DNA of 64,000 nucleotides. It comes from Candidatus Berkelbacteria bacterium (GTDB lineage Bacteria > Patescibacteriota > UBA1384 > DTJR01). Under the pieces are notes generated by a model. The model worked only from the letters and a program-made list of their open reading frames with translations, searched no databases and was not told the origin of the DNA. The position numbers and the translations under genes are program-made. Positions within the stretch are counted from its first letter, which is position 1. Each line of letters starts with the position of its first letter. Of this stretch, positions 9,412 to 64,000 are shown one piece after another. Location: contig JAOUGE010000002.1 in assembly GCA_029865605.1 (NCBI GenBank), forward strand, positions 24,555 through 88,554, written 5' to 3'.

Positions 9412-9470
9412 GGCAAAGGACAAGGGTTGCTTTTTGAGCTCTTTTTTTTTAAAATAAGGGCTACTACGGC

Positions 9471-9960: not shown

Positions 9961-10021
9961 CATGGCTTCAACCCCGATCCGCCCTCGGGCGGGCGGGGAC
10001 AACGCGAGGGAGGGATCTGGC

Positions 10022-10210
10022 ATGACGGACAGCCCTATCGTTGAGTCGTTGGCCGGCGGCGAGGATCACTCGCCGGGTAGCCTCACGAAGGAAGAACTTC
10101 GGGAGGAGAACCGGCGGCGACGCAGGAAGAAGCGGAAGGAGAGCCGCAAGAGCAATGGCGGCTCTCGCCGCCAGCCCTGCACAGGCCGTCGTGTCAACGG
10201 CCACCGCTAG
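10022..10210 (+). CDS. possible small basic protein (62 aa, RRRRRKKRKESRK) in GC-rich island 1
   Basis: ATG at 10022, followed by a strong GC hairpin at 10232-10258. This could equally be a composition artefact. Confidence 0.2.
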   Translation: MTDSPIVESLAGGEDHSPGSLTKEELREENRRRRRKKRKESRKSNGGSRRQPCTGRRVNGHR

Positions 10211-10297
10211 GGGGTGGTGTCGTACACAGGGGCCGGGGTCTGTATTGACCCGGCCCCTCTTGCTGTCTGAAACTGGTGCCGAGGGAGGTGAACCCAA

Positions 10298-10780: not shown

Positions 10781-10806
10781 TCGAGCTGCGATGTGGTGGC
10801 ATACAG

Positions 10807-10848
10807 GGGCGTCCTGAGCGTAGTCGAAGGACGCCCTTTGTGGTTTTA
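10807..10848 (+). terminator. intrinsic terminator
   Basis: GGGCGTCCT...AGGACGCCC 9-bp stem followed by TTTGTGGTTTT. Confidence 0.6.
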
Positions 10849-10887
10849 TAGATATTCTTAACCTGATTTGCTAATATTTAACCAGAC

Positions 10888-10977
10888 GGAGAGATGCAGG
10901 AGCGGTTTAACTGGCAGACCTGGAAAGTCTGTGCGCGGGAAACTGCGCCGTGGGTTCGAATCCCACTCTCTCCGCCA
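10888..10977 (+). tRNA. tRNA-Ser (anticodon GGA), type II with a long variable arm, CCA encoded
   Basis: Acceptor GGAGAGA/TCTCTCC, anticodon stem-loop CAGAC-CTGGAAA-GTCTG, variable arm GCGCGGGAAACTGCGCC, T-arm GGGTTCGAATCCC, discriminator G, then CCA. Confidence 0.85.
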
Positions 10978-11098
10978 GCATATGTTGTGTCGACTGAGGG
11001 GTAGACGCAGCCTGTGCGGGAATGGAACTTGAAAGGCATAAGATTAACTTGAGTGCTGCGAGAGCGAATGATAATATGGGAGTGAGCAAAAGGATAAA

Positions 11099-38503: not shown

Positions 38504-38544
38504 TATCTTGTTTGTTTTGAAATATTACGAATTGGTTCATTAAA

Positions 38545-38762
38545 AACTAAACCACATGTGCAGCCCCGCCTATGGTGGGGTGGGAAGTGAGGTTGGATTC
38601 CTCCACAGTCCCGCTACTGTAATCCTTTGAGCTTGCCCCGAGGCTTGCGCGAAGGGAGTCAGAAAACCAATATGTGGTAAAACCGCAGTCCGCCTCTTGG
38701 CGGAGGTGGTGCCTCGGTCGAGGGCAAGGTCAAACATGGCTTTGCGCCATGTTTTTGTTATT
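38545..38762 (+). promoter_or_regulatory. cobalamin (B12) riboswitch-like leader with an intrinsic terminator
   Basis: GGGAAGTGAGGTTGGATTCCTCCACAGTCCCGCTACTGTAATCC matches the cobalamin-element core (GGAA..GGUG.AA.UCC...C.G.CCCGC.ACUGU.A). GGGAGTCAGAAAACC resembles the B12 box. Terminator stem AAACATGGC/GCCATGTTT plus a T-run at 38733-38760. Confidence 0.65.
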
Positions 38763-45512: not shown

Positions 45513-46244
45513 ATGAAAGAGCCGATTTCGACATATCTCAAGGGTTATAGGGAAAAGGCCGATTTGACTCAAGGGGAGTTGGCGGAAAAGCTGGGGATCT
45601 CGAGACAGTCTATCATTTCGCTTGAATCGGGAAGATGCATTCCTTCGGTTATGCTGGCTTTGAAAATCGCCAAATTTTTCGAGCTTCCAGTTGAGTTTAT
45701 TTTTAGAGAAAATTTTAATCAATTTGAGTCTCTGGTCGATGAAATAATTAATGAAAAGAAGGGAGATAATATGACAAGAGATCTTATGCCTTGGTCGCCG
45801 TGGCGAGAGATGATGAGTCTTCGGGAAAACATTGACAGGTTTTTCGAAGAGCCGATGTCTCCCGCGAGAGCGTCTAGCGGCATCTTCCATCCGGCCATTT
45901 CAATTCGTGAAACGGATAAAGAAATGGTTATTGAGGCCGATGTTCCTGGAGTTAAAGAGGAAGATATTGATGTCGAGATTGAAGATGATAAGGTTATCAT
46001 CAAGGGGGAGAGGAAGCACTCTCAAGAGGTAAAGAGGGAAAACTACTATCATATGGAGAGTTCATACGGTTCTTTCTCCAGGGTAATCGGCTTACCAAGC
46101 CATGTCCGGGCCGATAAAGCGGAGGCGGAGGTTACCGACGGAACACTCAAAGTGAGAATCCCCAAGATAGAAGAGAGGAAACCAAAGAAAATTAAAGTTG
46201 CGACCAAGAAAGTCGAAGCAAGCAAAAAAGCGATAAAAAAGTAA
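45513..46244 (+). CDS. XRE-family HTH domain continuous with an Hsp20 / alpha-crystallin domain (one ORF; an internal Shine-Dalgarno and ATG at 45768 could also give a stand-alone Hsp20)
   Basis: N-terminal LTQGELAEKLGISRQSIISLESGRCIPS. From 45768: MTRDLMPWSPWREM...IRETDKEMVIEADVPGVKEEDIDVEI...GTLKVRIPK. AAGAAGGGAGAT lies 4 nt before the ATG at 45768. Confidence 0.6.
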   Translation: MKEPISTYLKGYREKADLTQGELAEKLGISRQSIISLESGRCIPSVMLALKIAKFFELPVEFIFRENFNQFESLVDEIINEKKGDNMTRDLMPWSPWREMMSLRENIDRFFEEPMSPARASSGIFHPAISIRETDKEMVIEADVPGVKEEDIDVEIEDDKVIIKGERKHSQEVKRENYYHMESSYGSFSRVIGLPSHVRADKAEAEVTDGTLKVRIPKIEERKPKKIKVATKKVEASKKAIKK

Positions 46245-46300: not shown

Positions 46301-47998
46301 TTATATTACACTTTTCTGATAGCAATCTTCGCAGTAAACTTTCTCTGGTCTATCCGGTGCATAGGTCGTTTCAAATTCGTTTTTGCAACCTTGGTTCATA
46401 CATTTTCTATGCCAGAGTTTACGGGGGTTGCGTAAGGCAAAACGTTCTTTGTATCTAATATTATAGTGTTTGGTTGGAATAGGTATTTTATTTTTAAGAT
46501 AATATGCTAACTCTTGCGGCATAATTTTAAATGGTTTATTTGATATCTCACACTTTAGTATCCCAGCAAGCAGTTTTTCTCTTTCATTTTCATTTTCGAT
46601 GTATTCATCAATATCATCTTTTGGCTCATAAAATGGTCCGTTGTACTTAATGCCATAATCTTTATCCTGCCACTTAGCATCAAGCTTTAGAGCCCCCTCT
46701 TTTTCAAGAGGAAAGTAGTCCATAGCCACTGTCTCGTTATAGCCAAAGGGACTTATTGAAACAGGGAAAAACTCTCCCCATTCGCCGTCTTTTTGCATTT
46801 TCTCAATTATCTGACCCGTTAACTTCTCATATTCTTGTTTAGAGTATTGTTTATTTAAAATGCAATATTGTTTATGGCGAAGACCGACACAGCCGAAGCA
46901 ACGCGAACAATATTCGCAGTGATTACAATACAGGTTGTTGTCTCCGTATGTAGCCCAAGTGCAAAACAAGTGCTTGTATCCAGCAATGCTTTCTCCCTCA
47001 TAACAGAGCTGCATTTCAGCAGATATATTTAAATCCTGGCAATCTTTTGCATCGCTATCGATATTATAAATTTTTTTGCAACCCTCGCACTTATAAGAAT
47101 TATATGAATCCTTGCAGTTTTTGCATTCGACTAAATAATCACCAGTGCATCCCTCTGATTTCTTATTGTTGTCGGATTTTCTAATGACACCTAGTTTGAT
47201 CCTTTTAAGTTCATTTATCAGGTTCCTTTGGATAGAACGGCTGGACAGATTTATTTTTTTAAATTCTTCAAAATATTTTTCTTTTGTATACTTTTTGTTT
47301 TTGATGTAGTACTGCTTGTTTCGTAGGTTCGTGCATAGCAAGACATTGTTGCACCCCTTGCAATCGTACGAGAAATGGGATTCAGTGCAGTTCTCACAAT
47401 GCTCCAAAAAGGTGGATGAATTACACTTGTCACAGTCAGTACAAAAGTAGCAATTCTCGCAATTCCTAACATAGAAGCAGTCTACGCAATCTTTCACCCT
47501 AAGAATTTCATTCGAGTAATAGCAGCTTTCGGCATATCCAGCGATAAAACACAAATAAGAATCCTTTAGGTGCCAAACTTCTTGGCAATATTCGCAGTTT
47601 TCGACAATTGTGGAGAGGGTTGCGAGTTTTGGAACTTGTCTGAATAAACTTTCGAATTGGGAGAAAAAATCTCGTTTTGAATCAAAATCGCAGCCATATT
47701 TTAGCGGATCCCAGTCGTCTTTCCATATTTCAATATTTTTCCAGACTTTGTATGGTTTGTCCGGAGAGTAGATGCTAATAATATTTTCTTGCGTTTTATC
47801 ACACTTTCGTTTGTATAGATTGGTAGATGCTTCCCAAACCATTCGCCTTTGGTCTCTACATTTTGGACACAGTGTCGGCGGAGGAATTTCGTAGGTTTTA
47901 CCCGCAAAAGTAGGGGAGATTTTTTTATAGAACTCTAAATCCTCGTCCTCAACGACGAATTTCTGATCGCACTGTTTACAGGTCTTATTCATACTCAT
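46301..47998 (-). CDS. cysteine-rich protein, paralogue 1 of 3 (unrecognised family)
   Basis: 565 aa. N-terminal CKQCDQKF...LCPKCR, dense CxxC runs, and a C-terminal ...FETTYAPDRPEKVYCEDCYQKSVI. Its ATG overlaps the upstream stop (ATGA). Confidence 0.7.
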   Translation of the reverse strand: MSMNKTCKQCDQKFVVEDEDLEFYKKISPTFAGKTYEIPPPTLCPKCRDQRRMVWEASTNLYKRKCDKTQENIISIYSPDKPYKVWKNIEIWKDDWDPLKYGCDFDSKRDFFSQFESLFRQVPKLATLSTIVENCEYCQEVWHLKDSYLCFIAGYAESCYYSNEILRVKDCVDCFYVRNCENCYFCTDCDKCNSSTFLEHCENCTESHFSYDCKGCNNVLLCTNLRNKQYYIKNKKYTKEKYFEEFKKINLSSRSIQRNLINELKRIKLGVIRKSDNNKKSEGCTGDYLVECKNCKDSYNSYKCEGCKKIYNIDSDAKDCQDLNISAEMQLCYEGESIAGYKHLFCTWATYGDNNLYCNHCEYCSRCFGCVGLRHKQYCILNKQYSKQEYEKLTGQIIEKMQKDGEWGEFFPVSISPFGYNETVAMDYFPLEKEGALKLDAKWQDKDYGIKYNGPFYEPKDDIDEYIENENEREKLLAGILKCEISNKPFKIMPQELAYYLKNKIPIPTKHYNIRYKERFALRNPRKLWHRKCMNQGCKNEFETTYAPDRPEKVYCEDCYQKSVI

Positions 47999-49725
47999 AT
48001 AACTGCTTTCTGATAACAGCTCTCGCAATATACTTTCTCTGGTCGGTCGGGGGCGTAGGTGGTTTCAAATTCATTTGGGCAACGACTAGAATGTCCATGC
48101 TCTGTTTCTTCACACATGCACTGGCGGTGATATAAATTCATTTTATTGAACATATCCAGTCGCTCTTTGTATCTTACATCAGGATGTTTTCTCGGTATTT
48201 GGAGTTTATTTTCGATATATTGAGCTAATTCTCGCGGGATTATCTTAAATGGTTTCCCAGAAACTTCGCACTTGATTATACCTTTAATGCATTTTTCTAT
48301 TTCATCATTCGCATCGGGGTTGTATTCTATATCATATTCTTTTATATCCTTCGGCTTATAATAAGGCCCAGCATTTTTTGTGGAGTAATCCTTGTCTTGC
48401 CATTTTAGGTCAAGTCTTTTTGCCTTATCTTTTTTAATTGGAAAGTGCTCGAAAGCGTTTGATTCATTGTAGCAAAATGGTGAGATAGCGGTCGGAAAAA
48501 ATTCTCCCCATTCACCCTGTTTTGACATTTGTTCGATAATTCGGGCAACCTTTATCTTGTATTCCTCCTCGGAATATTGCTTGTTCAAAATACAATATTT
48601 TTTGCGATTTAAACTTACACATCCAAACAAATCATTGCTGTTAGTACAGTTATAACAATAATATGAATTTCTGACTGAATCACAAGAAGTCATAAATGCT
48701 GAATTATATAATTTTGTAGAAGATGCGCCCTCATAAATAAGTTCGCCTCGGCCAATTGAGAGGGCATCCATAATCTCTTTCATACTATCAATCATATAAA
48801 CATAACGAGCGTTCTCGGTTTTGTAACAATAATAACTGTCCTTAACATCCTTGGAATTAAGCATTATATCTCCCGTACAATCACCTTGGCAAGAAATCAC
48901 AGTAACATACTTAAAGGGATATCTGAGTTTATTTTTTTTAGACATTGCTTGAGCTCGCATTACCCCCTCATAGCTATCGGTATATTCTTTAACCCTTTTA
49001 AGATACTCTTCTTTTTTTAGTTCTTCGTTAAAAAAATAGTATTTTTTATAACGCAGGTTTGTTGAGCTAAAACAAGAGTTGCATCCAACGCAGTCATTGC
49101 AGAATAAACAATCATTGCACATATGGCAATTGAACAAATATTGACTATCAAAGCATCCTACAGAGAAGACACTATTATGAACTTTATCTGAATAGCCGAC
49201 ACCAAAACAATCTGTCATGTCATTTCCGTGGATACAGCTATTACAATGGAAACAATTTCTGTTGTCGTTTCCTCCAGTACATAAATAACAATTGCTGCTG
49301 TTCATTTCCTGATTTACAAATTCACTATTTTCACAGTTTGTTGCAAAAAGGGTCAGAAGGTAGGTGCTATGCAATAGGTCATCGAATTGCTCAAAAAAAG
49401 ATCTGTTAATATCATAATTCCGCTCGCTTTCATGCTGGTTCCACTTATCTGACCAAAAACAATCCTTGCATAAAGCCTTTGGTTTTTTGTCGGGAGAATA
49501 CACGGAAATTATCTCTCTTTTGCAGATTGAGCACTCATTTTTATAAAACTTTCTTTCGTTTCGCCAATTCATTCTTCTTATCAATCGACACTCAGGACAC
49601 AGTGTCGGCGGCGGAATTTCAAAAGTCTTGCCGGCAAATGTCGGGGAGATTTTTTTGTAAAAGGCTAGGTCGTCATCTTCAACGACGAACTTTTGGTGGC
49701 ATTGTTTGCAGGTTTTATCAATCAT
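47995..49725 (-). CDS. cysteine-rich protein, paralogue 2 of 3
   Basis: 576 aa with the same architecture. Ends ...FETTYAPDRPEKVYCESCYQKAVI. Its ATG overlaps the upstream stop (ATGA). Confidence 0.7.
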   Translation of the reverse strand: MIDKTCKQCHQKFVVEDDDLAFYKKISPTFAGKTFEIPPPTLCPECRLIRRMNWRNERKFYKNECSICKREIISVYSPDKKPKALCKDCFWSDKWNQHESERNYDINRSFFEQFDDLLHSTYLLTLFATNCENSEFVNQEMNSSNCYLCTGGNDNRNCFHCNSCIHGNDMTDCFGVGYSDKVHNSVFSVGCFDSQYLFNCHMCNDCLFCNDCVGCNSCFSSTNLRYKKYYFFNEELKKEEYLKRVKEYTDSYEGVMRAQAMSKKNKLRYPFKYVTVISCQGDCTGDIMLNSKDVKDSYYCYKTENARYVYMIDSMKEIMDALSIGRGELIYEGASSTKLYNSAFMTSCDSVRNSYYCYNCTNSNDLFGCVSLNRKKYCILNKQYSEEEYKIKVARIIEQMSKQGEWGEFFPTAISPFCYNESNAFEHFPIKKDKAKRLDLKWQDKDYSTKNAGPYYKPKDIKEYDIEYNPDANDEIEKCIKGIIKCEVSGKPFKIIPRELAQYIENKLQIPRKHPDVRYKERLDMFNKMNLYHRQCMCEETEHGHSSRCPNEFETTYAPDRPEKVYCESCYQKAVI

Positions 49726-51449
49726 TTCTCTTCATCCCAATAGCACTTTTCACAATACACTTTTTCTGGTTTTTCAGGAGGATATGAAGTTTCGAATTCC
49801 GTCTTACATCTGCCTTCGTGGTCATGGTCTGTTTCTTCGCAATCGCACTGACGATGGAATAATTTTATATGGTTTATTAAATTGAATCTCTCGGTGAACC
49901 GAGTTTCAAAGTGTTTCTGCGGAATAGGTATCTTATTTCTAATATAAAAATGCAGCTCTTGAGGTGTAATTTTATACGGTCTGCCGCTAACTTTGCACTT
50001 TAAAACTCCGTCTAATAGCTCCTGTCGCAATTTCTCGCTTTTTGCATATTCAACAATTGCTTTCGGCTCGTAGGGCGTGCCGTCAAATTTCAGGGAGAAG
50101 TCGTCATCTTGCCACCCAAATCCAAGTTTCTGTGCCTCTTCCTTACTCAAGGGATAATAATCGTTAGCGATCGTCTCGTTATACCCAAAAGCGCTAACAT
50201 TATTTGAAAACCACTCTCCCCACTCCTCATCTTTCTGCATCCGCCCAATTATTTTCGCAACCGTTGCCTTGTATTCTTCTTCGGAGTATTGCTTGTTTAA
50301 AATGCAGTGTTTTTTATGGTTTTTGACTCCGACGCAACCAAAGAGACTGTCGCAGTAGTAGCAGTGATCACAGTAGAACGAGTTGGATAATTGATAGGCA
50401 AAAGAGATAAACGAACTTCTGGTTGTTCCAAGGCCGATGTTTGTTCCTTGATACAGCAGTTCGCCGGTATTGCCGAAACCGGATACATCATAGGAGTCCT
50501 TGGTCGAAAACATCCCGTAGCAGAATTTGCAGTCCTCGCAATTCGTCATCATAAAACATCTCTGGCAGTTTTTAGAATCGAAAATATCCTCTCCTGAACA
50601 ATTTTCGCTCCGCAGCATTTGGGAGAATTTCTTGGGGCGAGAAATTATTATTTCTCTGAATTCTTTTCTATATTCATCTATCTTTGTCTCAAGTCCGGCT
50701 AAAAATTCTTTTTTTACTTTTTCGTATTCGTCTTTTTCAAGTTGTTGATTTTTATAGCAATATCTTTTTCTGTACAGGCAGCTGCATAGGATGCAGTCAG
50801 CACAACTGTTGCAATCTTCTATAAAATACGAATCTCGACAATTTCCGCAGTTTATCGACCAATTGATGTTATAGCATTTGCCAAGGTTTATTCCTTCGTA
50901 ACAAAGTTCGCTAAATGCGCCGAAGGTGAGATCAACGCACGATTTACAATTATCAACGTAGTAGCCGTAATAGACGCTCTCGTTATTTCCGGCTAAAAAA
51001 AGCAGATAGCAGTCTCTGTTTCCGTCGGCCAAGTTGGTATATTCGGAGTTTTCCGATTTTACATTCATAAGGGCCGCCTTTGGAACAGCGGTCTTTAACT
51101 CAGCGAATTGTTGGAAAAACGGCTTTAAGGGATCGAAGTCGCGCCCGTATTTTAGCGGCTCCCATTTGTCTGACCACCAGCATTGCTGGCAATAAACAGT
51201 TACTTTTTTATCTGGCGAATAGACTGTGATTATGTCTTTCTGGCACAAATCACACTTTCTTTTATAGAGTTTCACCACGTTTCTAAAAGCAAAACGGATC
51301 TGCTGCCGGCAATCTGGGCACAACGTCGGCGCTGGCATCTCGTAGGTCTTACCCGCGAAAGTAGGGGATATTTTTTTGTAAAATATTAAATCGTCGGCGG
51401 TGACGGCGAATTTGGTTTTACATTGTCGGCATTGTTTTTCTAGGGCCAT
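49722..51449 (-). CDS. cysteine-rich protein, paralogue 3 of 3
   Basis: 575 aa. Ends ...FETSYPPEKPEKVYCEKCYWDEEK. Starts 9 nt after the L,D-transpeptidase stop. Confidence 0.7.
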   Translation of the reverse strand: MALEKQCRQCKTKFAVTADDLIFYKKISPTFAGKTYEMPAPTLCPDCRQQIRFAFRNVVKLYKRKCDLCQKDIITVYSPDKKVTVYCQQCWWSDKWEPLKYGRDFDPLKPFFQQFAELKTAVPKAALMNVKSENSEYTNLADGNRDCYLLFLAGNNESVYYGYYVDNCKSCVDLTFGAFSELCYEGINLGKCYNINWSINCGNCRDSYFIEDCNSCADCILCSCLYRKRYCYKNQQLEKDEYEKVKKEFLAGLETKIDEYRKEFREIIISRPKKFSQMLRSENCSGEDIFDSKNCQRCFMMTNCEDCKFCYGMFSTKDSYDVSGFGNTGELLYQGTNIGLGTTRSSFISFAYQLSNSFYCDHCYYCDSLFGCVGVKNHKKHCILNKQYSEEEYKATVAKIIGRMQKDEEWGEWFSNNVSAFGYNETIANDYYPLSKEEAQKLGFGWQDDDFSLKFDGTPYEPKAIVEYAKSEKLRQELLDGVLKCKVSGRPYKITPQELHFYIRNKIPIPQKHFETRFTERFNLINHIKLFHRQCDCEETDHDHEGRCKTEFETSYPPEKPEKVYCEKCYWDEEK

Positions 51450-56275: not shown

Positions 56276-56491
56276 GATCTACTTGACAATTTCTTCTTTA
56301 CCCTCTACAGTCATCTTGTAAAAAAGGGGGATAAGGAGAGAATAAATGTCAGTTTTGATGCGCGCCAAATTTCCGACTGTGAAGGCATTCAGGCGCGTTT
56401 TTTATTTGACAAAATAAAATACAAAGCGAGGTCGACGTTTTGAGAGTTGAGTAATTCCCGCTCCACCATGGAGGGCGGGAAAGGAGAAAAT

Positions 56492-57106
56492 ATGTTAAGA
56501 ATCGCAAAAAGCTTAATCACGATTCTGGCTGTTGCGGCCATTGCTGTCGGTGCTACCGGAGCGTACTTCAGCGACACCGAAACGTCAATCGGTAACACCT
56601 TTTCTGCTGGATCGCTTGACTTGAATATTGACGGGGGAAATACCAACGTTGTAAAATTCAATGTCACAAATATGAGGCCAGGTAATCAACCAAAAGGCTC
56701 GTATACTCTTGCAAATGTCGGAACGATCAATGGCTATCTGGATCTTGAGAGTATTGCGGTTACAGATACAGAAAACGGCTGTGTCGATCCTGAAACTGTA
56801 GCTGGAGATATAACCTGCGATAATCCGGGAGTCGGTCAGGGTGAACTTGGCGATGTGGTCAACCTTCGTCTTTTCGTTGATAGAAACGGAGATGGTTGGA
56901 TTTCAGTTGGTGACACTGTATTCTATAACGACAAAGTGGCAAACTTACCGGCAAGCTTCGATTTGAACGAGCCAATTAATGCTGGCTCCTCGACTAAAAT
57001 CGTTGCTCTTCTGGACTGGTGGTCAACACCTAACGATGACTTGGCCCAAGGTGATTCGATGCAACTCGATATAACCTTTGAGCTAGCCCAGACTACAGGA
57101 CAATAA
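56492..57106 (+). CDS. TasA/camelysin-like secreted protein with a SipW-cognate signal peptide
   Basis: MLRIAKSLITILAVAAIAVGATGAYFSDTETSIGNTFSAGSLDL, the hallmark ...GATGAYFSDTE... signal. ATG at 56492 after an AAAGGAGAAAAT Shine-Dalgarno. Confidence 0.7.
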   Translation: MLRIAKSLITILAVAAIAVGATGAYFSDTETSIGNTFSAGSLDLNIDGGNTNVVKFNVTNMRPGNQPKGSYTLANVGTINGYLDLESIAVTDTENGCVDPETVAGDITCDNPGVGQGELGDVVNLRLFVDRNGDGWISVGDTVFYNDKVANLPASFDLNEPINAGSSTKIVALLDWWSTPNDDLAQGDSMQLDITFELAQTTGQ

Positions 57107-57165
57107 GTTCTTGAGCTTCTCGAGCCCCGACAAATACTGTTTGTCGGGGCGAAGAGGAGTTTACA

Positions 57166-57774
57166 GTGGCCGCTAAAAAATCTGACAAAAGTGGTAGAAA
57201 ATTGAACGCTAAAGCTATTTGGCTAGTTTTGGCTAATGCCATCTTTGTTTTTCTGATATTGGTGGGACTTATAATTGCTGCATCACTTCTGCCTATAAAA
57301 AATAATTTTAAAATTTATGCTGTGATGTCCGGATCGATGGAATCGACTATCTCAACTGGGAGCGCAGTGATAGTCAAGCCACAGTTGATGTACCAAAAGG
57401 GTGACGTTATTACATTCCTTCCGATAAACGCAAAATCGAAGAAGGAGTCCATTACCCATCGAATTGAATCGGTGATCGATGAGAACGGGTTGATATATTT
57501 CCGGACAAAAGGTGATGCAAACGAGAATGTAGACGAGCAGCCTATACCGAGCGATAGGGTTATCGGCAAGGTGCTGTTTTCTATCGCAATAATCGGCTAT
57601 GTTGTCGGTTACATCAAAACCTTACCTGGCTTGGTCCTAATTATCATTATTCCAGCAACGATAATTATTTATGAAGAAGTAAAAAAACTGAAGTCGGAGG
57701 CCAAAAAGATCATAGAGAAGCGGAAGGCAAAAGGTGAGGGTAAAAAGAGTCTTAGAAAAATCAAAACAAAATAA
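57166..57774 (+). CDS. sipW: signal peptidase I, SipW type (S26B)
   Basis: VMSGSMESTI (SGSMEP box), and the TM anchor, His and Asp boxes. GTG start after an AGAGGAG Shine-Dalgarno. Confidence 0.75.
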   Translation: MAAKKSDKSGRKLNAKAIWLVLANAIFVFLILVGLIIAASLLPIKNNFKIYAVMSGSMESTISTGSAVIVKPQLMYQKGDVITFLPINAKSKKESITHRIESVIDENGLIYFRTKGDANENVDEQPIPSDRVIGKVLFSIAIIGYVVGYIKTLPGLVLIIIIPATIIIYEEVKKLKSEAKKIIEKRKAKGEGKKSLRKIKTK

Positions 57775-57811
57775 TGTTATATAGAAATTTATATAAGTGT
57801 AAGGAGTAGGA

Positions 57812-58468
57812 ATGAATAAATATGTAAACTATATAAAGGTTTTGTTCGTTTGCGCAGCGGTCATTTTGATTGGTGTAGTAGCGACGGGGGCATATTTTAC
57901 TGATCGCGAGACCTCGGTGAACAATTCATTTACTGCGGCAATCTGGTCACCAACCCCGTTGCCCTTACCGTCACCGGGTGCTGCTAATATTCTTATCACA
58001 GAGGTTTACTATAATCCGGATGCGAATCACGGCACTGCCGATGACGAGTGGATCGAAATATATAATGCTGGTTCGGGTTCTGTTAATCTGAAAGGCTGGA
58101 TCTTGTGGGATAACAACTCGAGCGAAACAATTCACGAGAATCATATTTTGAATCCCGGGGAATATGCCCTGATATCCTCCAATGCCAGCACTTGGAACTA
58201 CTGGTCCGAGCCGTCAAGTGCCGAAATAATAATTGTCGGCGGGTTGGAGTTATTTAATGGACTGGCAAACACTGGCGACAGGGTAGTTTTGTTTAATCCG
58301 ACGCCTTCTGAAAAAGACGCCGTGAGCTGGGGAACAGACACCTATGCCTTCTCTCCGTCTGTGGCTGTTTTTACTCAGGGCCACTCAGCCGAGCGATCTA
58401 ACCATTCAGTAGATACCAACAGCGCTTCAGATTGGATAGATCAGACTAATCCAACACCAGGAGGATAA
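57812..58468 (+). CDS. secreted lamin-tail-domain (LTD) protein with a SipW-cognate signal peptide
   Basis: ...VVATGAYFTDRETSVNNSFTAA..., then ILITEVYYNPDANHGTADDEWIEIYNAGSGSVNLKGWILWD, the LTD signature. Confidence 0.65.
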   Translation: MNKYVNYIKVLFVCAAVILIGVVATGAYFTDRETSVNNSFTAAIWSPTPLPLPSPGAANILITEVYYNPDANHGTADDEWIEIYNAGSGSVNLKGWILWDNNSSETIHENHILNPGEYALISSNASTWNYWSEPSSAEIIIVGGLELFNGLANTGDRVVLFNPTPSEKDAVSWGTDTYAFSPSVAVFTQGHSAERSNHSVDTNSASDWIDQTNPTPGG

Positions 58469-58469
58469 A

Positions 58470-59441
58470 ATGGCAAAAAAAAGAATGGTTAGAAGAAATA
58501 GTAAAAAGCTTGGTAATCTGCTTGTTGCTATCTCTGTTTGTCTGGGTTTGGTCGGCATGGCTAATTTTGCCCTTAAAGCACAGGCTGACAGCTTGTCGGC
58601 TGGGCCGTTGACAATAACTTATACCGGGAGCGGGCCGATTTTCAACGAAGTTAATATTGCTCCTGGTGCAACCTTCAACAAAGACATCACGGTGACTAAC
58701 GATGGCTCGGTCGCTCATTCCTTTGCTTTGGCGACCGATAATGTTTCCGGTGATTTGGCCGATAAGGTTTATCTTGAGCCGGTCGGCGGGGAAGTCTGGA
58801 AGATGTCGATTAAGGAACTCTCGGAAATTCCCACTGTCAGCAAGACGGTCGTTTCGAGCATTGCTCCCGGTGCTTCGGCGGCAATAACACTGAAAGCGGA
58901 ATTCGATACAGCGGCGGATAATGCCTATCAAAATAAGGGAGTATCTTTCGATTTAGTTTTTGGCTCGCAGGAGGCGGAGCCGACTCCGGTGTCATCTCCT
59001 TCACCTTCGCCAGTGGCGGTTGCTAGCCCAACTGTTGATGCAATTGGCGGTGGCTATCTCGCTTTTGCTCCTTTGCCCGCTATCGTTTCACCTGCGCCCT
59101 CAGCTTTGGCTTCGCCGAGCCCGGAGGGGGAAGTAAAGGGGGCGGGAGAAGAGAAGGAGACGGGCAAGTCCTGGCCGTTGCTTCTGATTGTGCCAGCTGT
59201 GGCAATAGCGAGCCTGCTTATTCCACTCGGCTCGAGAACAGGCATCAGGACTCCTATCGTTGCCGGAGCGGTGGCTGCGATCTTGTCTTATTTCTATAAA
59301 GGGACACTCGAGCCCTGGATTTTCTGGCTGATTCTGATTGTGGAAGTCATCGTTATTCTGGTTGCTGGTTGGTTTATCGTTTCTCGATACAGAACGAGGA
59401 AAGCCAGAGAGAAGAGAGCGGCTTCGAGGAAGAAAAGGTAA
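58470..59441 (+). CDS. secreted protein with an N-terminal signal, a beta-rich domain, an Ala/Pro/Ser linker and C-terminal TM segments plus a basic tail
   Basis: ATG one nt after the upstream stop. Ends ...RYRTRKAREKRAASRKKR*. Confidence 0.45.
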   Translation: MAKKRMVRRNSKKLGNLLVAISVCLGLVGMANFALKAQADSLSAGPLTITYTGSGPIFNEVNIAPGATFNKDITVTNDGSVAHSFALATDNVSGDLADKVYLEPVGGEVWKMSIKELSEIPTVSKTVVSSIAPGASAAITLKAEFDTAADNAYQNKGVSFDLVFGSQEAEPTPVSSPSPSPVAVASPTVDAIGGGYLAFAPLPAIVSPAPSALASPSPEGEVKGAGEEKETGKSWPLLLIVPAVAIASLLIPLGSRTGIRTPIVAGAVAAILSYFYKGTLEPWIFWLILIVEVIVILVAGWFIVSRYRTRKAREKRAASRKKR

Positions 59442-59642
59442 CAACGAGTATTTGATCTTGAGAAAAGCAATAATAACCCACTAACCTTGACTTATGGGGG
59501 GGATTTGGAGTAAGTTAATGCCGACGGTTAAGGAGCAATAGCTTGACCGCGCGGCGCTTTTAGCGCTAGTTTCAAAATCCATGCCCGCCGGCAGGCGGGC
59601 AGTTCGGGCTCAAAGCTCGGACGATATGCGGAGGTCGGAACG

Positions 59643-60407
59643 ATGGGACGGATCGGCCCAGCTGTTCTGATGTTGCTGACTTTCGTCGTCTTGGCCGGAT
59701 GCGGAGGATCCGGCCCCGGAAACGGCGGAGGTGGTGATCTCCAACTCTCTCTCACTGGTGGCGGGCCGCCGACGTCGGGGGGCGGCCGAATGTACTACCC
59801 GATGCTGGAAGGTGAGTCCAGGCCCCTCAAGTGTACCTGGGCCGGTGGGCCGGTCTCGGGTGCTCCGGTGTGGACGATCACATCGGATAACCCCCGGGTC
59901 AAACCTGTTACGGCTCGCTTCAACGCGATGCGCCTGCCCCCTGAAACGCTGGGGGGAAACCTCCTCTTGATGGGGACGGTGTATGAGGAGGGCTGGAACC
60001 GAGTCCGGGTGGAGTACGGCGGCCAGAGCAAGGAGGTATGGGTGAAGGGAGACCCCACGGATTGGTCGCCGCCGAAGATGACTGCTCCACTCAATGCTAG
60101 TGGCGCTCGGCTTGAAGTGGTGGGCGATCCCTCAGTCTGGTCGACCTCGCTGGCCTATGGTAGTAGCAACTACTGGACGGAACAGACCGGGGTCTTGGAG
60201 ATCGGTGCCCAAATCGTGGGAGACTACCCTGGCGCCTCCCCACCGCAGTGGACAGCCGAGCAATCTCGCCTAGAGTTTGTCGGCTTGTCCAGGGGCTGGA
60301 AGGTCAAGTTCGAGATCAAGGACCTGCAGTATGGGCGGTTCTGGCCGTTGACGGCGGAGATCGGGGGGTATGCTGTCACGGTGGGGATCAGCGGGAATGT
60401 GAACTAG
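59643..60407 (+). CDS. lipoprotein paralogue A (GC-rich; function unknown)
   Basis: MGRIGPAVLMLLTFVVLAGCGG, a signal peptide plus lipobox Cys. Conserved blocks YYPMLEGESRPLKCTWAGGPVSGAPVWT, WNRVRVEYGGQSKEVWVKGD and TAPLNASGARLEVVGDPSVWST. Confidence 0.6.
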   Translation: MGRIGPAVLMLLTFVVLAGCGGSGPGNGGGGDLQLSLTGGGPPTSGGGRMYYPMLEGESRPLKCTWAGGPVSGAPVWTITSDNPRVKPVTARFNAMRLPPETLGGNLLLMGTVYEEGWNRVRVEYGGQSKEVWVKGDPTDWSPPKMTAPLNASGARLEVVGDPSVWSTSLAYGSSNYWTEQTGVLEIGAQIVGDYPGASPPQWTAEQSRLEFVGLSRGWKVKFEIKDLQYGRFWPLTAEIGGYAVTVGISGNVN

Positions 60408-60422
60408 CGTTTTCGTTCTCAA

Positions 60423-60450
60423 AGGGGCGGGCCTGTGTAGGCCCGCCCCT
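60423..60450 (+). terminator. intrinsic terminator
   Basis: AGGGGCGGGCC-tgtgt-AGGCCCGCCCCT followed by TTCTCGTATT. Confidence 0.6.
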
Positions 60451-60620
60451 TTCTCGTATTGAGTATTGACTTTTTAAGATATTTATGGTATAGTTTTTGC
60501 CGACGGTTAAGGAGTGATGACTTGACCGCGAAGCGCTTTAAGCGCTAGTTTCAAAATCTATGCCCGCCGGCAGGCGGGCAGTTCGGGCGCAAAGCTCGGA
60601 CGATATGCGGAGGTCGGACG

Positions 60621-61496
60621 ATGGGACGGTACGCTCTGGTCGTTCTGATGTTGACGGCGTTCGTCGTTCTGGCCGGATGCGGATCCGGCCCCGGAGTCAA
60701 CGAGATGTCTGGTGGCGGCTTCGCCGCCGCCTCTGAGAATGGGGAGTTCGTCCCGGCGGACGAGCCGGGCGACCTGGTCTTGGACGAGCCGTTCGATCCC
60801 CAGGCGGCTTTGGAGCTCCCTCTCCCGGAGGTGGCCGCGGCGGCTAGCCCGTTGAAGCTCTGGCTGACGGGGGGCCGGGCGCTGAAGCACGACACTGGGA
60901 CCGGCCGTGACTATTACCCAATGAAGATGGGGGAGTCCCGACCTATCTGCTGCACCTGGAGCGGCGGGACCGTCACTAACCTGCCGGTCTGGACTGCTCC
61001 TCTCGACCCCTACGCTCGGGTCGGGATCAACGCTATGCATCAACCCCCCAGGACGCTGAACCGCAACTTCCTCTACCCTAAGGACGGAGGGGAGCTGTGG
61101 AACCAGGTGCGCGTGAGGTATGGCGGCCGGACGCAGAGCGTCTGGGTCAAAGTGGATGGCCTCTGGCCGCGACCTGGCCAGACTGCGCCGCTGAATCCCG
61201 CCGGGGCGCGGCTGAAGATCGTAGGGAGCGCCTCTGCGTGGTCTACGGGCACCCAGCACGGTGCGCGGTACTTCTGGACTACGCAGAGCGGCATCCTGAC
61301 CTTGCGAGCTAGGATGGTGGGAAGCTACGCTAACTCGCCTACGCCGATGTGGACGGCTGACCAAGCGAAGCTGAAGTTCGTCGGCTCGTCCACAGGGAGG
61401 ACGGTCCAGTTTCGGATCCGTCAGCGGGGTGAGTGGTACCCTCTGACGGCGAAAGTAGGAGTCTTCTCTGTCACGGTCTTGGTCAAGGGGCAATAG
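60621..61496 (+). CDS. lipoprotein paralogue B (GC-rich; function unknown)
   Basis: MGRYALVVLMLTAFVVLAGCGSG, plus the same conserved blocks (YYPMKMGESRPICCTWSGGTVTNLPVWT...). Confidence 0.6.
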   Translation: MGRYALVVLMLTAFVVLAGCGSGPGVNEMSGGGFAAASENGEFVPADEPGDLVLDEPFDPQAALELPLPEVAAAASPLKLWLTGGRALKHDTGTGRDYYPMKMGESRPICCTWSGGTVTNLPVWTAPLDPYARVGINAMHQPPRTLNRNFLYPKDGGELWNQVRVRYGGRTQSVWVKVDGLWPRPGQTAPLNPAGARLKIVGSASAWSTGTQHGARYFWTTQSGILTLRARMVGSYANSPTPMWTADQAKLKFVGSSTGRTVQFRIRQRGEWYPLTAKVGVFSVTVLVKGQ

Positions 61497-61518
61497 CCAC
61501 CTCGACCTCTAGTACTCG

Positions 61519-61547
61519 ATGGGGCGGACCTACATAGGTCCGCCCCA
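61519..61547 (+). terminator. intrinsic terminator
   Basis: ATGGGGCGGACC-tacat-AGGTCCGCCCCAT followed by TCTTGTTT. Confidence 0.6.
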
Positions 61548-61644
61548 TTCTTGTTTAGTTGATATTTCTGTTTGACAGCAAATTCTAATTTGATAGCCTT
61601 AAATTAGTCAGCCTTTTACTGCAATCTGTCCAGAGGAGGAGTTT

Positions 61645-64000
61645 TTGGATGTAAAAAGCGTCACTTCTTTAATAAAGAAGAGACTTGGTCGGATTTTAGC
61701 TTTGGTTATCGCCTTAGCACTTTTGGTTTCAATCTCGATTTTTAGCCACAAGGATATCGGGGCCGAAGCCATCACAATCCCAAATGGGACCTATATTTCG
61801 GCTAAAAATTTCACCTATGACTATTCCGATGTTGTTATTAAGAATGCCGATGTTACAATTGATGGCTATCATTATTTTAAGAAGTTGACGATTGGTAATG
61901 GTGGGACCTTAACCCAAAGCCCGGCCGGTATTTACCGAAAGAACACAAGAAGTCTTGACTATTATGGTTTTGTCAGCCGCTCCTGGGCATTTCATGCCGA
62001 AGGACTCTTTGACCCGGCTGCAACAAAACATTATAAATTTAAGATTACCGATGCCGATGATGCGGTACTTTTTAGAATAAATACCGAGACCTGTTTGAAC
62101 GATCCTCTTGGCTGTGGTTCGGGTAACGCTTATAGTTGGGTGCGCGCTTCTAAATCCAGCGCCGCGGCCATAGCAGCCGGCTGGCCGGCGAACAAAGTAA
62201 CAAGCAACTATGTCTCACTCGACCAAACCAAAAATTATCAAATTGAGTTGTTTTTTGCCCAAGCCAATGTGACCTATGGCACGAATAACGCTGCTTCTTT
62301 CCGCTTAAAATATTGTATGTCGGACACAGGATTACCGGCTGACTGTGATGAGGACGCGGAGTTTAATGACCTGAATACTTCAACAATGATTAAAGACAGG
62401 GACGGAACCGCCTCCCAGCTTGATCTTTCTTTTTATGTTGGCGGCAGCGGGGCGGATGTTGTGGGATTGGATAAAGACCCCCAAGGAGCTAGCCCCGACT
62501 CAACAGACGTCTTTTTTGATTTTACCAACGCTACCTCGATGGTTCACGTTTCGAGCTATAACCTCTTCTCGGCTAAAGCGTACTTCCCCAAGAGTTTAAC
62601 TGCCTCCGGCCAAGCCTATCGAAGCTATACCTCAAGCGGTTATTTGAGCACAAATTCTTCTGACAATATGGAGGATATTTACCCGATTAATCGAGCTTAT
62701 TCTGATGAAAAGGGTGTGGCAACAGCAGCGGCAACAAATCATTATTTTCAGTTTGATTTTAGCAGTTACCATTCGGGTGATAATATTGGCTACACAAATC
62801 CCTTGGGTTATCTTCCCCTTAAACAAGCAAGAGACACCGGCAGTTTTGATTACAAAAGCTATTGGGGCGCTTTTTATTCGCTGGTGGTTCTTAACGCATT
62901 AAGAAATCTGGTGCCGCTTGAAATCGAAGCTGAAACACTAGAAATTCTGAACGAGGGGAAGATAGATTTAACGGGTAAGGGTTATTCTGGGGGAAGATGG
63001 CACTATCGCAAATTTTATGAGTCGGCTTATGGGGTAACTGGCGCTCCTTCGTCGAGCGGTTTTGGCCCGGGGGGCGGTCAAGGTTACTATGCCGGTTCAA
63101 ACCAACAATCTGCCGGCGGCGGCCATGGCGGGGTCGGCGGCGGCCATAACCTGACGGTAAATGAGGGTCTAAAGTCAGTGGGAGGTAAAGACTACGGCGA
63201 GGCGTCAAACCCCCTGATCCCCGGCTCAGGTGGAGGATTGGGTTTTTATAATTCGGACACAAGCGATATTAGAGTAGGCGGGAACGGTGGAGGACAAGTT
63301 AAAATTTGGGCCAGATCGATGAAACTTGTAGGTTCGGCAAAGATAATTGCTGATGGCACTTTAGGCAACGGTTTGCATTTAAACTACAGTGGATATGATC
63401 TGCCTGATTCGTGGATTGGCGGAGGCAATCGCAACTGTACGACTGGCTGCCAAAGCTACGGCGGCGGCGGCGCAGGAGGAGCGATCCAAATAAAGGCGGC
63501 GGTAGAGCTGGTGATTGGTAATTGGGATATATATGATGATAGCCCAAGAGGAGGGATTTTTGCCGAAGGCGCTAGCTCGTTAAGCCTTGGTAATGTCCCC
63601 GATTTTGCCGGAGGGGATGGCGGCGGCGGCGGGCGGATAAGGTTTGCCGTACCGACTGAGGGTTCTCGGTCTACGCTCCAGGACGAAGTTAATAGCGCCA
63701 GTTCGGATATACGTGCTAGCCGCCGCTGCCCGACCGGGGTGACTAGCCGGTGTGGCACAAACGGAACGGTGAGAATTGCCCATGAAGCCCCGGACGCGTT
63801 TTTTACGGGGCTGACTAAAAAGAACACAATTGAAAGGATTGCTTACACTAACAGTTCTCGAGGTGAAGCAGCAAAAGATTTTAACTTCCAAGCCGGGGAA
63901 AAGGTTTTTGTTAGACTAGGAGTTCTAGCTACGGGGAATACAACTGAAGTGGTTTCGCTGGTTGAGGAAGTGAGCCGAATTAGTGGCAGTATCACAGTTA
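61645..64000 (+). CDS. large secreted Gly-rich repeat protein, 5' portion (runs off the window end); TTG start
   Basis: The frame opens after the TAA at 61600-02 and has no stop through 63999. A GAGGAGGA Shine-Dalgarno lies 4 nt before the TTG at 61645. Signal/TM (ILALVIALALLVSISIFS) and internal GGGHGGVGGGHN and GGDGGGGGR glycine runs. Confidence 0.55.
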   Translation, partial: MDVKSVTSLIKKRLGRILALVIALALLVSISIFSHKDIGAEAITIPNGTYISAKNFTYDYSDVVIKNADVTIDGYHYFKKLTIGNGGTLTQSPAGIYRKNTRSLDYYGFVSRSWAFHAEGLFDPAATKHYKFKITDADDAVLFRINTETCLNDPLGCGSGNAYSWVRASKSSAAAIAAGWPANKVTSNYVSLDQTKNYQIELFFAQANVTYGTNNAASFRLKYCMSDTGLPADCDEDAEFNDLNTSTMIKDRDGTASQLDLSFYVGGSGADVVGLDKDPQGASPDSTDVFFDFTNATSMVHVSSYNLFSAKAYFPKSLTASGQAYRSYTSSGYLSTNSSDNMEDIYPINRAYSDEKGVATAAATNHYFQFDFSSYHSGDNIGYTNPLGYLPLKQARDTGSFDYKSYWGAFYSLVVLNALRNLVPLEIEAETLEILNEGKIDLTGKGYSGGRWHYRKFYESAYGVTGAPSSSGFGPGGGQGYYAGSNQQSAGGGHGGVGGGHNLTVNEGLKSVGGKDYGEASNPLIPGSGGGLGFYNSDTSDIRVGGNGGGQVKIWARSMKLVGSAKIIADGTLGNGLHLNYSGYDLPDSWIGGGNRNCTTGCQSYGGGGAGGAIQIKAAVELVIGNWDIYDDSPRGGIFAEGASSLSLGNVPDFAGGDGGGGGRIRFAVPTEGSRSTLQDEVNSASSDIRASRRCPTGVTSRCGTNGTVRIAHEAPDAFFTGLTKKNTIERIAYTNSSRGEAAKDFNFQAGEKVFVRLGVLATGNTTEVVSLVEEVSRISGSITV

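Follow-up and report, generated by a model that had tools for sequence, protein, structure and literature searches.

In the Escherichia coli lpp and ompA mRNAs and in the Bacillus aprE leader, 5'-terminal hairpins and a strong terminator protect abundant envelope (lipo)protein mRNA from decay. In S-layer genes (for example, Geobacillus sbsC and Lactobacillus slpA), transcription starts at a strong promoter, runs through a long and structured 5' UTR, and ends at a strong terminator; this design gives very stable and abundant mRNA. S-layer genes are not known to be compositional outliers of the size described here. Atypical GC content or codon usage is routinely taken as evidence of horizontal transfer. 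The tandem lipoprotein genes lipoA and lipoB of a Candidatus Berkelbacteria MAG (CPR) have a design like that of the S-layer genes and are a clean counter-example to this practice: their GC3 of ~0.8 compared to 0.45 is inherited, stationary, and bounded by the transcription unit, with signs of selection on RNA structure. Literature searches on GC-rich genes or lipoproteins of Berkelbacteria found nothing. The genes were analyzed within a stretch of 64,000 nucleotides (the window), in which an earlier sequence-only reading had marked them as a GC-rich island, one of two.

Two autonomous transcription units

The region consisted of two autonomous transcription units, each with its own promoter, leader of ~123 nt, and strong terminator (Table 1). 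Both ORFs were found as the sequence-only reading had described them, including the MGR...VLAGC start in which a signal peptide is followed by the L-A-G-C lipobox, and the conserved blocks that it had listed all lay inside a BLASTP alignment of lipoA and lipoB (43% identity, E 9e-64). Its observation of GC-rich genes in an ordinary context was likewise sound, with a CDS GC content of 0.63 (lipoA) and 0.65 (lipoB) and an atypical codon usage in which A and T occupied 0.08 and 0.14 of third positions, respectively. GC3 of the remaining window ORFs of at least 150 aa was 0.32-0.53, the sole exceptions being two ORFs of the other GC-rich block, island 1 (0.63 and 0.68), so the genome is without a general GC mosaic that could have made the region unremarkable, as that reading had allowed. 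The GC-rich stretch began with the leader and reached as far as the terminator, and the bias ended exactly at the promoter and past the terminator.

Table 1. Features of the lipoA and lipoB units, with positions in the window.
Feature	Position	Strand	Description
Promoter, unit A	59487..59516	+	TTGACT 59487-59492; weak -10 TAAGTT 59511-59516; read from sequence
Leader A (5' UTR)	59520..59642	+	Helices P0, P1, P2, extra hairpin, P3; CM R1 88 bits, E 1e-22
lipoA CDS	59643..60407	+	254 aa; lipobox LAGC, short Gly-rich linker, two predicted Ig-like domains; GC3 0.74
Intrinsic terminator, unit A	60421..60452	+	14-bp GC-rich hairpin, then UUUCUCGU; -29.8 kcal/mol, z -6.4
Promoter, unit B	60466..60494	+	TTGACT, 17 nt, TATAGT, TG extension; promoter scan, 10/12 matches
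Leader B (5' UTR)	60499..60620	+	Architecture as leader A; CM R1 83.5 bits
lipoB CDS	60621..61496	+	291 aa; lipobox LAGC, disordered acidic/Ala-rich stalk of ~55 aa, two predicted Ig-like domains; GC3 0.79
Intrinsic terminator, unit B	61518..61549	+	14-bp hairpin, then UUCUUGUUU; -29.6 kcal/mol, z -6.3; terminator scan

The two promoters aligned column by column; promoter B was near consensus and the -10 box of promoter A was poor (TAAGTT/GTAAGT), a small correction. Orthologous units carried TTGACT or TTGATT, a 17 nt spacer, and TATAGT, TATAAT, or TACAGT at the same spacing to the leader, and the promoter of the B unit in the relative L011 was identical to promoter B. The proposal of one GC-hairpin terminator per gene stood, as both hairpins (about -30 kcal/mol) were G+C-rich, carried U-rich tails, and were located 3' of the stop codon, that of unit A also being picked up by blastn as an inverted self-match. 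Promoters and terminators were kept in every ortholog.

An artifact, either as an assembly chimera or as a GC3-driven false gene call with the real gene on the antisense strand, is scarcely credible. An antisense ORF of 311 aa (60558-61493) covers lipoB and would fit such a false call, but it stayed open in 200/200 synonymous shuffles and was broken in the orthologs, identifying it as a product of high GC3, and the sense proteins were conserved with their lipobox and domain structure. Assembly chimerism, which the sequence-only reading had named as a risk, is contradicted by identical junctions in independent ENA, JGI, and Logan assemblies from different samples.

A four-helix leader RNA

The leader forms a previously undescribed RNA motif, with four helices and covariation, that was found only ahead of this lipoprotein family, and the earlier proposal of a conserved structured leader before each gene was borne out by the CM R1 scores of both copies (Table 1). 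In leader A, P0 is formed by CGAC/GUCG and adjoins the SD (GGAGG, 59630-59634), the extra hairpin GCCCGCC..GGCGGGC is lineage-specific, and GUUUCAAAA was predicted to be unpaired with a probability of 0.96. The first helix begins within a few nt of the predicted 5' end. Leaders A and B were ~92% identical. The CM retrieved each of the seven leaders, one of which had been held out and scored 60 bits, and had no further hits. With an alignment that was itself fitted to the model, 94.7% of cells were paired compared to 27-40% with slid partners, and seven pairs were altered on both sides, with 0/500 shuffles matching the observed values. As P1 and P3 contain G-U pairs, the structure can be assigned to the sense (plus) strand. 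SD accessibility in predicted ensembles was only 0.23-0.54, a range that would also fit a leader that is regulated and not constitutive.

The motif had no match in the region at Rfam 15 gathering thresholds, and a comparison with 4227 Rfam families at E <= 10 returned chance-level matches only, led by CRISPR-DR9, whose 21 bits fell short of its threshold of 45. Further copies were not found by the CM in the window (island 1 included) or in other loci, the matches of DNA-pattern scans in GTDB genomes and JGI metagenome contigs were all due to chance and lay within GC-rich coding regions, and a scan of IMG/VR gave none. Several other identities of the leader were rejected. A minus-strand CRISPR-like repeat was discarded on the sub-threshold Rfam score, the G-U pairs that fix the sense strand, and the presence of two copies 979 nt apart, each in a 5' UTR. 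A leader peptide was discarded as the small ORF that starts in the window-specific hairpin was missing in the orthologs.

It seems doubtful that the leader is a sensor, that is, a riboswitch-like or protein-bound translational switch in which ligand or protein binding at the P0-P3 junction and at the conserved unpaired GUUUCAAAA would control access to the SD next to P0. The multi-helix junction closed by a CGAC/GUCG helix abutting the SD, the covarying helices with a conserved single-stranded GUUUCAAAA, the SD that is only half accessible in predicted ensembles, and the strict association of the motif with one gene family are all consistent with such a switch. Against it, the 3' half of the leader is not fixed, P3 being missing in L011B and extra hairpins occurring in the window, L010, and L011B; P0 has only 4 bp, is almost invariant, and is broken in two of the seven leaders; no alternative terminator/anti-terminator pairing and no Rfam match were found; and seven sequences are too few for defining a binding pocket. 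A sensor would concern the role of the leader only, which may be that of a stabilizer or that of a switch, and is compatible with the rest of the explanation preferred below.

Inheritance, GC3 constancy, and folding of the lipoprotein family

Searches of billions of proteins (5.8 G clustered and 1.84 G representative proteins) yielded only eight genes of the family, distributed over six contigs that came from different samples. No relatives outside a small Berkelbacteria clade were found in those proteins, GTDB genomes, JGI metagenome contigs, IMG/VR, plasmids, or phages; protein-pattern scans of metagenome, genome, and viral contigs and tblastn against plasmids and phages also returned nothing. 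Therefore, no donor can be named; homologues in high-GC Actinobacteria or other candidate hosts, which the sequence-only reading had suggested looking for, did not appear in the searched databases. In four genomes (window, L001, L002, and L011) the lipoprotein genes were syntenic, following the same surface gene cluster, and in L010 a family gene occurred in another context beside a HicA-like gene. Between distant genomes the lipoproteins shared 43-49% aa identity, compared to 35-59% for their neighbors, and TM323 was 74% identical between the window and the closer relative L011. The lipoA ortholog P0005 was 69% identical.

Both copy types were present in the same order in L011, namely an A-type gene (69% aa identity to lipoA) and a B-type gene (71% to lipoB), so the duplication is older than the split from L011. 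The earlier proposal of an old tandem duplication that took in the entire unit holds, with the promoter duplicated along with leader, gene, and terminator. Comparison of the two window units by blastn gave one DNA match only (59513-59720 and 60492-60695, 86% over 208 nt), beyond which the CDSs were ~59% identical in codon-aligned nucleotides. The A and B leaders of L011 differed from one another, which indicates that the high leader identity in the window reflects later gene conversion and not the age of the duplication; homogenization of the leader and signal-peptide region between the window copies is evident. A VR/TR pair of a diversity-generating retroelement (DGR) was rejected, in agreement with the earlier reading, as mismatches between the codon-aligned copies fell on all bases (A 69, T 59, G 96, and C 73) and a third, template copy was absent from the window.

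In each of the six GC-rich family genes (orthologs and paralogs), GC3 stayed within 0.74-0.83, compared to 0.26-0.54 in neighboring genes. At conserved residues, the window and L011 used different codons in ~40% of cases, and GC3 was unchanged (0.74/0.75 and 0.79/0.77). At 4-fold sites of the neighbors, identity between distant genomes was 0.24-0.37 compared to 0.25 by chance, so neutral amelioration would have run to completion. The GC-richness is thus inherited and has been held over long divergence with the transcript, and is not the mark of a recent import. Amino-acid composition was rejected as its cause, as the bias lies in GC3 itself and L012, a distant family member without lipobox, had a GC3 of only 0.42/0.52, demonstrating that high GC is not forced by the protein sequence.

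These data bear directly on the claim that the unit is a foreign block from a high-GC donor, possibly shared with island 1, that has retained the donor composition. The clearly atypical composition and codon usage speak for it, as do the similar bias of island 1 and its FabZ, which has ordinary bacterial relatives at ~55% identity and appears to have been acquired from them. However, the synteny and co-divergence with neighbors across four genomes, a GC3 that is stationary despite saturated synonymous sites in those neighbors, and the lack of homologs in the other lineages and mobile elements searched argue against it. Furthermore, the unit is flanked by no integrase, repeats, or tRNA but directly by ordinary neighbors, its promoter is of native type, and a blastn comparison of the unit with the window detected only the match between leaders A and B and the hairpins of both terminators. 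Foreign origin as a recent event is largely refuted, an ancient transfer into the ancestor of the clade is possible, and as a whole this origin is unlikely. The idea of a donor in common with island 1 also found no support, as the islands have a property in common but no demonstrable donor; island 1 was also conserved and GC-rich in the relative L013.

Evidence of selection on the RNA came from folding and from synonymous sites. Compared to synonymous-codon shuffles (20-24 per gene, predicted energies), the seven family genes, which are related and thus not independent, had folding z values of -1.3, -2.5, -5.9, -4.3, -2.2, -2.8, and -5.4, and 25 background genes had a mean of -0.85 (sd 1.2; Mann-Whitney p = 4e-4), with one background gene at -4.0. 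Predicted MFE was -0.45 to -0.51 kcal/mol per nt in the family compared to -0.17 to -0.35 in background genes. The consensus-fold energy relative to codon-column shuffles gave z values of -2.1 (7 sequences) and -3.5 (4 sequences), compared to -0.8 and -0.9 for two neighbor genes. At conserved residues, 0.41-0.55 of the lipoprotein 4-fold sites were identical compared to 0.32 by chance. An ancestor of the lipoprotein genes more recent than that of the neighbors, together with fast protein evolution, could also yield such conservation.

GC-biased gene conversion (gBGC), or a local recombination or mutation bias, could raise GC without selection on the RNA, the idea being that surface-protein genes recombine often, and the gene conversion seen between the window copies and the many G<->C transversions among lipoprotein synonymous changes are in line with it. 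This process is nevertheless very unlikely: the highest GC3 (0.83) was found in the single-copy gene of L002, the bias stops sharply at the unit boundaries, and neither the excess folding stability nor the conserved consensus fold is predicted by a process acting on composition only. Reported bacterial gBGC effects are also far smaller than a GC3 shift of ~+0.35. Another consideration concerns expression level. A TasA-like subunit encoded nearby, probably abundant, had a GC3 of 0.43; as other probably abundant surface genes are not GC-rich, high expression alone cannot account for the bias.

The explanation to which we give an even chance is that of an abundant surface lipoprotein made from stable, highly structured mRNAs. 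The lipoprotein family was inherited vertically within a cell-surface gene neighborhood of a small Berkelbacteria clade, and selection would act on the RNA of its units. Each unit would be transcribed from a strong sigma-70-type promoter into an mRNA with its 5' end buried in the conserved four-helix leader, an unusually structured coding region, and a very strong terminator hairpin, which together may make the mRNA durable and high in output, as would suit an abundant protein of the surface coat. The purpose of the structure would be mRNA stability or output, with stability being read from the design, and the protein would probably be abundant and adhesive or structural.

A broader and more tentative possibility is that Berkelbacteria keep a small class of hyper-structured, GC-rich mRNAs, including both islands of the window, in which transcript-wide synonymous selection holds GC3 at ~0.8 compared to a genomic 0.45 over family-level divergence. 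If so, in cells that are ultra-small and poor in ribosomes, GC-rich transcripts with the new leader could survive RNases or toxin endonucleases, and a compositional island in a CPR genome would be the sign of a mode of gene expression instead of horizontal transfer. If the case of the lipoprotein pair is general, some of the sequence labeled "foreign DNA" in CPR and other genomes carries the wrong label, and selection on the structure of entire transcripts can far exceed the strength that is usually assumed.

The surface protein and described systems

The N-termini MGRIGPAVLMLLTFVVLAGC and MGRYALVVLMLTAFVVLAGC each contain the signal peptide and lipobox of a lipoprotein, and the L/M-A-G-C motif was invariant among all full-length orthologs. 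Pfam, NCBIfam, PHROGs, and PDB sequence searches identified no family or domain for lipoA or lipoB. The AF2 model of lipoB had an overall pLDDT of 63, with values of 70-92 across the C-terminal domain. Foldseek aligned this model with SbsC, an S-layer protein, at its tandem Ig-like domains 4-5 (E 1e-6), but with a TM of only ~0.2-0.3. The protein is predicted to be a lipid-anchored stalk bearing two Ig-like domains with a putative S-layer-like fold. The genes upstream of lipoA in the window form a TasA-like/SipW/LTD/membrane-protein cluster, and the wider cell-surface neighborhood included the TasA-like fiber protein, SipW signal peptidase, LTD protein, membrane protein, and a PA14-like giant protein, with type IV pilus genes in a relative. 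NCBIfam matched the SipW-type signal peptide TIGR04088 in the upstream proteins at 56447-57106 and 57812-58468 and in neither lipoA nor lipoB. The analysis yields an unannotated family of surface lipoproteins with predicted Ig-like domains in a lineage with a cell surface, and hence a host attachment, that is almost unexplored.

Several described systems resemble the locus in part. Atypical GC and codon usage with sharp boundaries are shared with horizontal genomic islands, but the lipoprotein units are syntenic in diverged relatives and show no amelioration, mobility genes, flanking repeats, or donor homologs. A 5' UTR of ~110-125 nt with a multi-helix junction, covarying helices, and a closing helix beside the SD is reminiscent of Rfam translational riboswitches and cis-regulatory leaders. 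In contrast to these, the leaders differ in how many hairpins they have, and they show no evident ligand or logic of an expression platform. The position after genes for a TasA-like protein, a SipW-type peptidase, and SipW-signal proteins recalls Bacillus tapA-sipW-tasA, and by this analogy a TapA-like anchoring or accessory role of the lipoproteins is conceivable. However, they carry a lipobox instead of a SipW-type signal peptide and have their own promoters and terminators, and family searches of lipoA and lipoB gave no similarity to TapA.

The closest parallels are in envelope protein mRNAs. As in lpp, ompA, and aprE, the first helix of the leader lies within a few nt of the predicted 5' end, whereas the sequence and structure of the leader are unrelated, its four helices with the single-stranded GUUUCAAAA are more elaborate, and the entire lipoprotein CDS is also GC-enriched and over-structured. 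LipoA and lipoB differ from S-layer proteins in that they have no sequence similarity to them, lack an SLH or cell-wall-binding domain, appear to be anchored by lipid via the lipobox, and have only two domains in ~250-290 aa. The S-layer genes nevertheless share the arrangement of promoter, 5' UTR, and terminator with the lipoprotein units, and the best fold match of both predicted domains, though at low TM, is to the tandem Ig-like domains of SbsC.

Anatomy, rarity, and surroundings of the lipoprotein genes

The window derives from a Candidatus Berkelbacteria MAG in which lipoB, the second of two GC-rich lipoprotein genes, bears the NCBI name OEV37_01050 on a 97.5-kb contig. The sequence-only reading had described lipoA and lipoB as two ORFs with a signal peptide and lipobox, and both were confirmed at the lengths it gave. 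Their products are paralogs (43% identity, E 9e-64), and an L-A-G-C lipobox closes the signal peptide at each N-terminus. Each gene forms one complete transcription unit (units A and B) with a sigma-70-type promoter, a leader, and a terminator. The -10 box is weaker in unit A than in unit B, and both ribosome-binding sites (SD) are strong (GGAGG, 8 nt 5' of the ATG).

Features of the window and of related contigs
Feature	Location	Description
Leader A	59520-59642	~123 nt
lipoA ORF	59643-60407	254 aa
Terminator, unit A	60421-60452	14-bp G+C hairpin, ~-30 kcal/mol
Promoter, unit B	60466-60494	TTGACT, 17 nt, TATAGT
Leader B	60499-60620	~123 nt
lipoB ORF	60621-61496	291 aa
Terminator, unit B	61518-61549	14-bp G+C hairpin, ~-30 kcal/mol
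Leader reverse complement (-)	59569-59605; 60548-60584	Hairpin, then AUGGAUUUUGAAAC
Island 1	9470-10980	Near-consensus promoter (TTGACT, 17 nt, TATAGT), hairpin-rich leader, GC-rich ORFs, strong terminators
Island-1 ORF	9634-9960	108 aa, GC-rich
FabZ (island 1)	10298-10780	GC-rich
tRNA-Ser(GGA)	10888-10977	Follows the island-1 ORFs and terminators
Cobalamin riboswitch aptamer (+)	38542-38686	Rfam RF00174, 38.9 bits (gathering score 31.5)
Single ORF (+)	45513-46244	N-terminal HTH_3 DNA-binding domain, C-terminal HSP20/alpha-crystallin domain
Three tandem paralog-sized ORFs (-)	46301-51449	575, 576, and 575 aa; AT-rich (GC 0.36-0.41)
Fibre secretion set (+)	56447-59441	SipW-type signal peptides (TIGR04088) on TasA/camelysin-like and LTD-domain proteins; SipW-type signal peptidase; 323-aa protein with C-terminal membrane segment
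Large secreted protein (+)	61645-63999	Just 3' of lipoB terminator; at least 785 aa, leaves window; weak PA14 hit
Leader-like element	L001 6795-6889	3' of lipoprotein terminator: hairpin, AGTTCAAAAC, second hairpin, GGAGGT
Upstream gene's end	L010 1-177	Resembles HicA-family mRNA interferase toxin (judged from translation alone)
Distant family member	L012 3-805	Apparent frameshift gives two ORFs, P0008 and P0006
FabZ locus	L013 1-830	FabZ 74% identical

Combined searches of 5.8 billion clustered proteins, with an exhaustive profile scan covering 1.84 billion representatives and a word-index profile search, recovered only eight genes of this family: lipoA, lipoB, P0002, P0003, P0004, P0005, a partial gene after P0005 on contig L011, and the distant frameshifted member. 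No member turned up among GTDB species genomes, JGI metagenome contigs, IMG/VR, plasmids, or phages, and none matched Pfam, NCBIfam, PHROGs, or PDB sequences. AlphaFold modeling from a seven-sequence alignment predicted, downstream of the lipobox, a disordered stalk and two all-beta domains (pLDDT 63 overall, 70-92 in the C-terminal domain). Foldseek against the PDB matched tandem Ig-like domains: those of SbsC, an S-layer protein of Geobacillus, ranked first (domains 4-5, E 1e-6), and Ig tandems of titin and contactin came next. TM-scores were low because the domain orientation differs.

The neighborhood is devoted to the cell surface, encoding L,D-transpeptidase, CAP protein, Big_13 adhesin, TasA-like, SipW, LTD, and PA14-like giant proteins. 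The fibre secretion set is Bacillus-like, here in a CPR genome, and is conserved in the related contigs L001 and L002. The large secreted protein has 837 aa in the full contig (L016), and its counterpart is the 815-aa gene after the lipoprotein gene in L002, a contig on which what follows the lipoprotein is a gene for a giant secreted protein plus genes of the type IV pilus. An L,D-transpeptidase gene adjoins the three tandem ORFs, for which no Pfam hit was obtained.

Inheritance and maintained base composition

The lipoprotein gene occupies the same position on three further contigs from different samples (L001, L002, and L011), with a shared upstream order of DivIC, TasA/camelysin-like protein, SipW signal peptidase, LTD-domain protein, and a ~320-aa membrane protein. 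Neighboring genes have diverged as far as the lipoproteins, with identities in distant genomes of 35-59% for neighbors and 43-49% for lipoproteins, and in the closer relative L011 of 74% for the membrane protein, 69% for lipoA, and 71% for lipoB. This context is not universal in the family, as the upstream neighbor in L010 is the end of a HicA-like gene. A-type and B-type copies in tandem on L011 place the duplication before the split of the window and L011 lineages. The A and B leaders of L011 differ from each other; those of the window are ~92% identical, a similarity that runs on to the end of the signal-peptide coding stretch (208 nt at 86%) and then vanishes. The 5' part has thus undergone recent gene conversion.

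The coding sequences of lipoA and lipoB have a GC of 0.63 and 0.65 and a third-position GC (GC3) of 0.74 and 0.79, compared to 0.32-0.53 in all 47 other long ORFs of the window, the sole further outliers being two island-1 ORFs (0.63 and 0.68). Third-position A and T are avoided in general (0.08 and 0.14 vs. 0.24 and 0.32 in the background), with AAG for 93% of Lys codons (background 34%) and ATC for 88% of Ile codons (background 30%). The GC anomaly is therefore real and codon-level, and genome-wide mosaic GC, which would have rendered the pair unremarkable, is not the case.

Lipoprotein orthologs were likewise GC-rich at third positions (L001, 0.77; L002, 0.83; L010, 0.78; L011, 0.75 and 0.77) compared to 0.26-0.54 in neighboring genes, and GC3 was unchanged between the window and L011 with ~40% of codons at conserved residues altered. 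In distant genomes, 0.24-0.37 of 4-fold sites in neighbor genes were identical (0.25 expected by chance), indicating that synonymous sites had fully turned over; had a donor's composition persisted only as a neutral remnant, GC3 would by now have fallen to ~0.45. The GC-richness is thus conserved rather than residual, and at every locus it starts at the leader, 3' of an AT-rich promoter, and stops at the terminator. The distant L012 member carries an ordinary Sec signal peptide in place of a lipobox, and its composition is normal (GC3 0.42 and 0.52), indicating that the fold needs no GC-rich codons.

Shared synteny, co-divergence with neighbors, and conserved ortholog GC3 contradict a recent arrival of the foreign block that was initially proposed, and the homologue searches named no high-GC donor. 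The evidence best supports a surface lipoprotein that is specific to the lineage, was inherited vertically, and exists as two old paralogs; confidence is high for the anatomy, inheritance, and maintained composition of the units.

Island 1, the other GC-rich block (FabZ region), is built like the lipoprotein units. Contig L013, from a relative, has the same FabZ, terminator, and tRNA-Ser layout, with an island GC of 0.62 vs. 0.38 in its flank, and the next-best relatives are ordinary FabZ proteins in LPS clusters of diderm bacteria (~55% identical). A transfer is a plausible origin for island 1, but here too the high GC has been conserved and is not fading, and the island-1 genes gave synonymous-shuffle folding z of -2.7, -1.9, and -4.6. 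The suggestion that both islands came from one donor was not borne out, as they have a behavior in common and no traceable donor.

Leader RNA and transcript structure

All seven available leaders have one common layout: 5' CCGAC, helix P1 (consensus CGGUUAGGC/GCUUAAUCG), the P2 hairpin, unpaired GUUUCAAAA, one or two more hairpins (P3 and/or lineage-specific), GGAGGUCG, and the start codon. The leader CGAC is able to pair with GUCG immediately 3' of the SD (helix P0). A covariance model from six leaders recovered the seventh (60 bits, E 9e-15) and detected no further leader in 99 kb of the window and related loci. Standard pairs filled 94.7% of cells in the model alignment vs. 27-40% with partners slid by 1-3 columns, seven pairs changed on both sides vs. 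1-4 in the slid controls, and none of 500 shuffles reached the observed pairing values. No Rfam family matched the leaders. GUUUCAAAA was predicted unpaired in all of them (P 0.64-0.96) and the SD about half accessible (0.23-0.54).

The leader-like element on L001 may be a diverged second unit; the contig ends 3' of it before any gene, and it escaped the covariance model. On the minus strand, the leaders look like CRISPR repeats of type I (Rfam CRISPR-DR9, 21.4 and 15.8 bits, threshold 45; best E 0.13). An antisense CRISPR repeat was rejected, as the score is sub-threshold and the structure, with its frequent G-U pairs, belongs to the sense (plus) strand; the likeness looks coincidental.

All seven family coding sequences were predicted to fold more stably than synonymous permutations of themselves (z -1.3, -2.5, -5.9, -4.3, -2.2, -2.8, and -5.4), compared to a mean z of -0.85 (sd 1.2) for 25 background genes of the window (Mann-Whitney p = 4e-4). 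At conserved residues, 0.41-0.55 of 4-fold sites were identical among lipoprotein orthologs vs. 0.32 by chance, whereas neighbors in the same genome pairs were at chance. RNAalifold consensus energy against codon-column shuffles gave z of -2.1 (seven sequences) and -3.5 (four B-type orthologs), compared to -0.8 and -0.9 for two neighboring genes. As the energies are predicted, the shuffles few, and the sequences related, these tests favor selection on the transcript in a supportive, not conclusive, manner. Part of the composition could stem from biased gene conversion, but this process leaves unexplained the sharp transcript boundaries, the highest GC3 in the single-copy L002 gene, and these structural signals.

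An mRNA-stability function is proposed with moderate confidence, in which four features would make transcripts of the surface lipoprotein persistent: the promoter is strong, the 5' end is bound up in the conserved leader with its several helices, the GC-rich body is over-structured, and the terminator is very strong. In the main rival reading, the leader would control translation as a switch of the riboswitch kind; its variable 3' half and its short, nearly invariant P0 speak against a precise ligand pocket, although both stay compatible with protein binding. The persistence design proposed for the lipoprotein transcripts is shared by the mRNAs of S-layer genes, lpp, and ompA.
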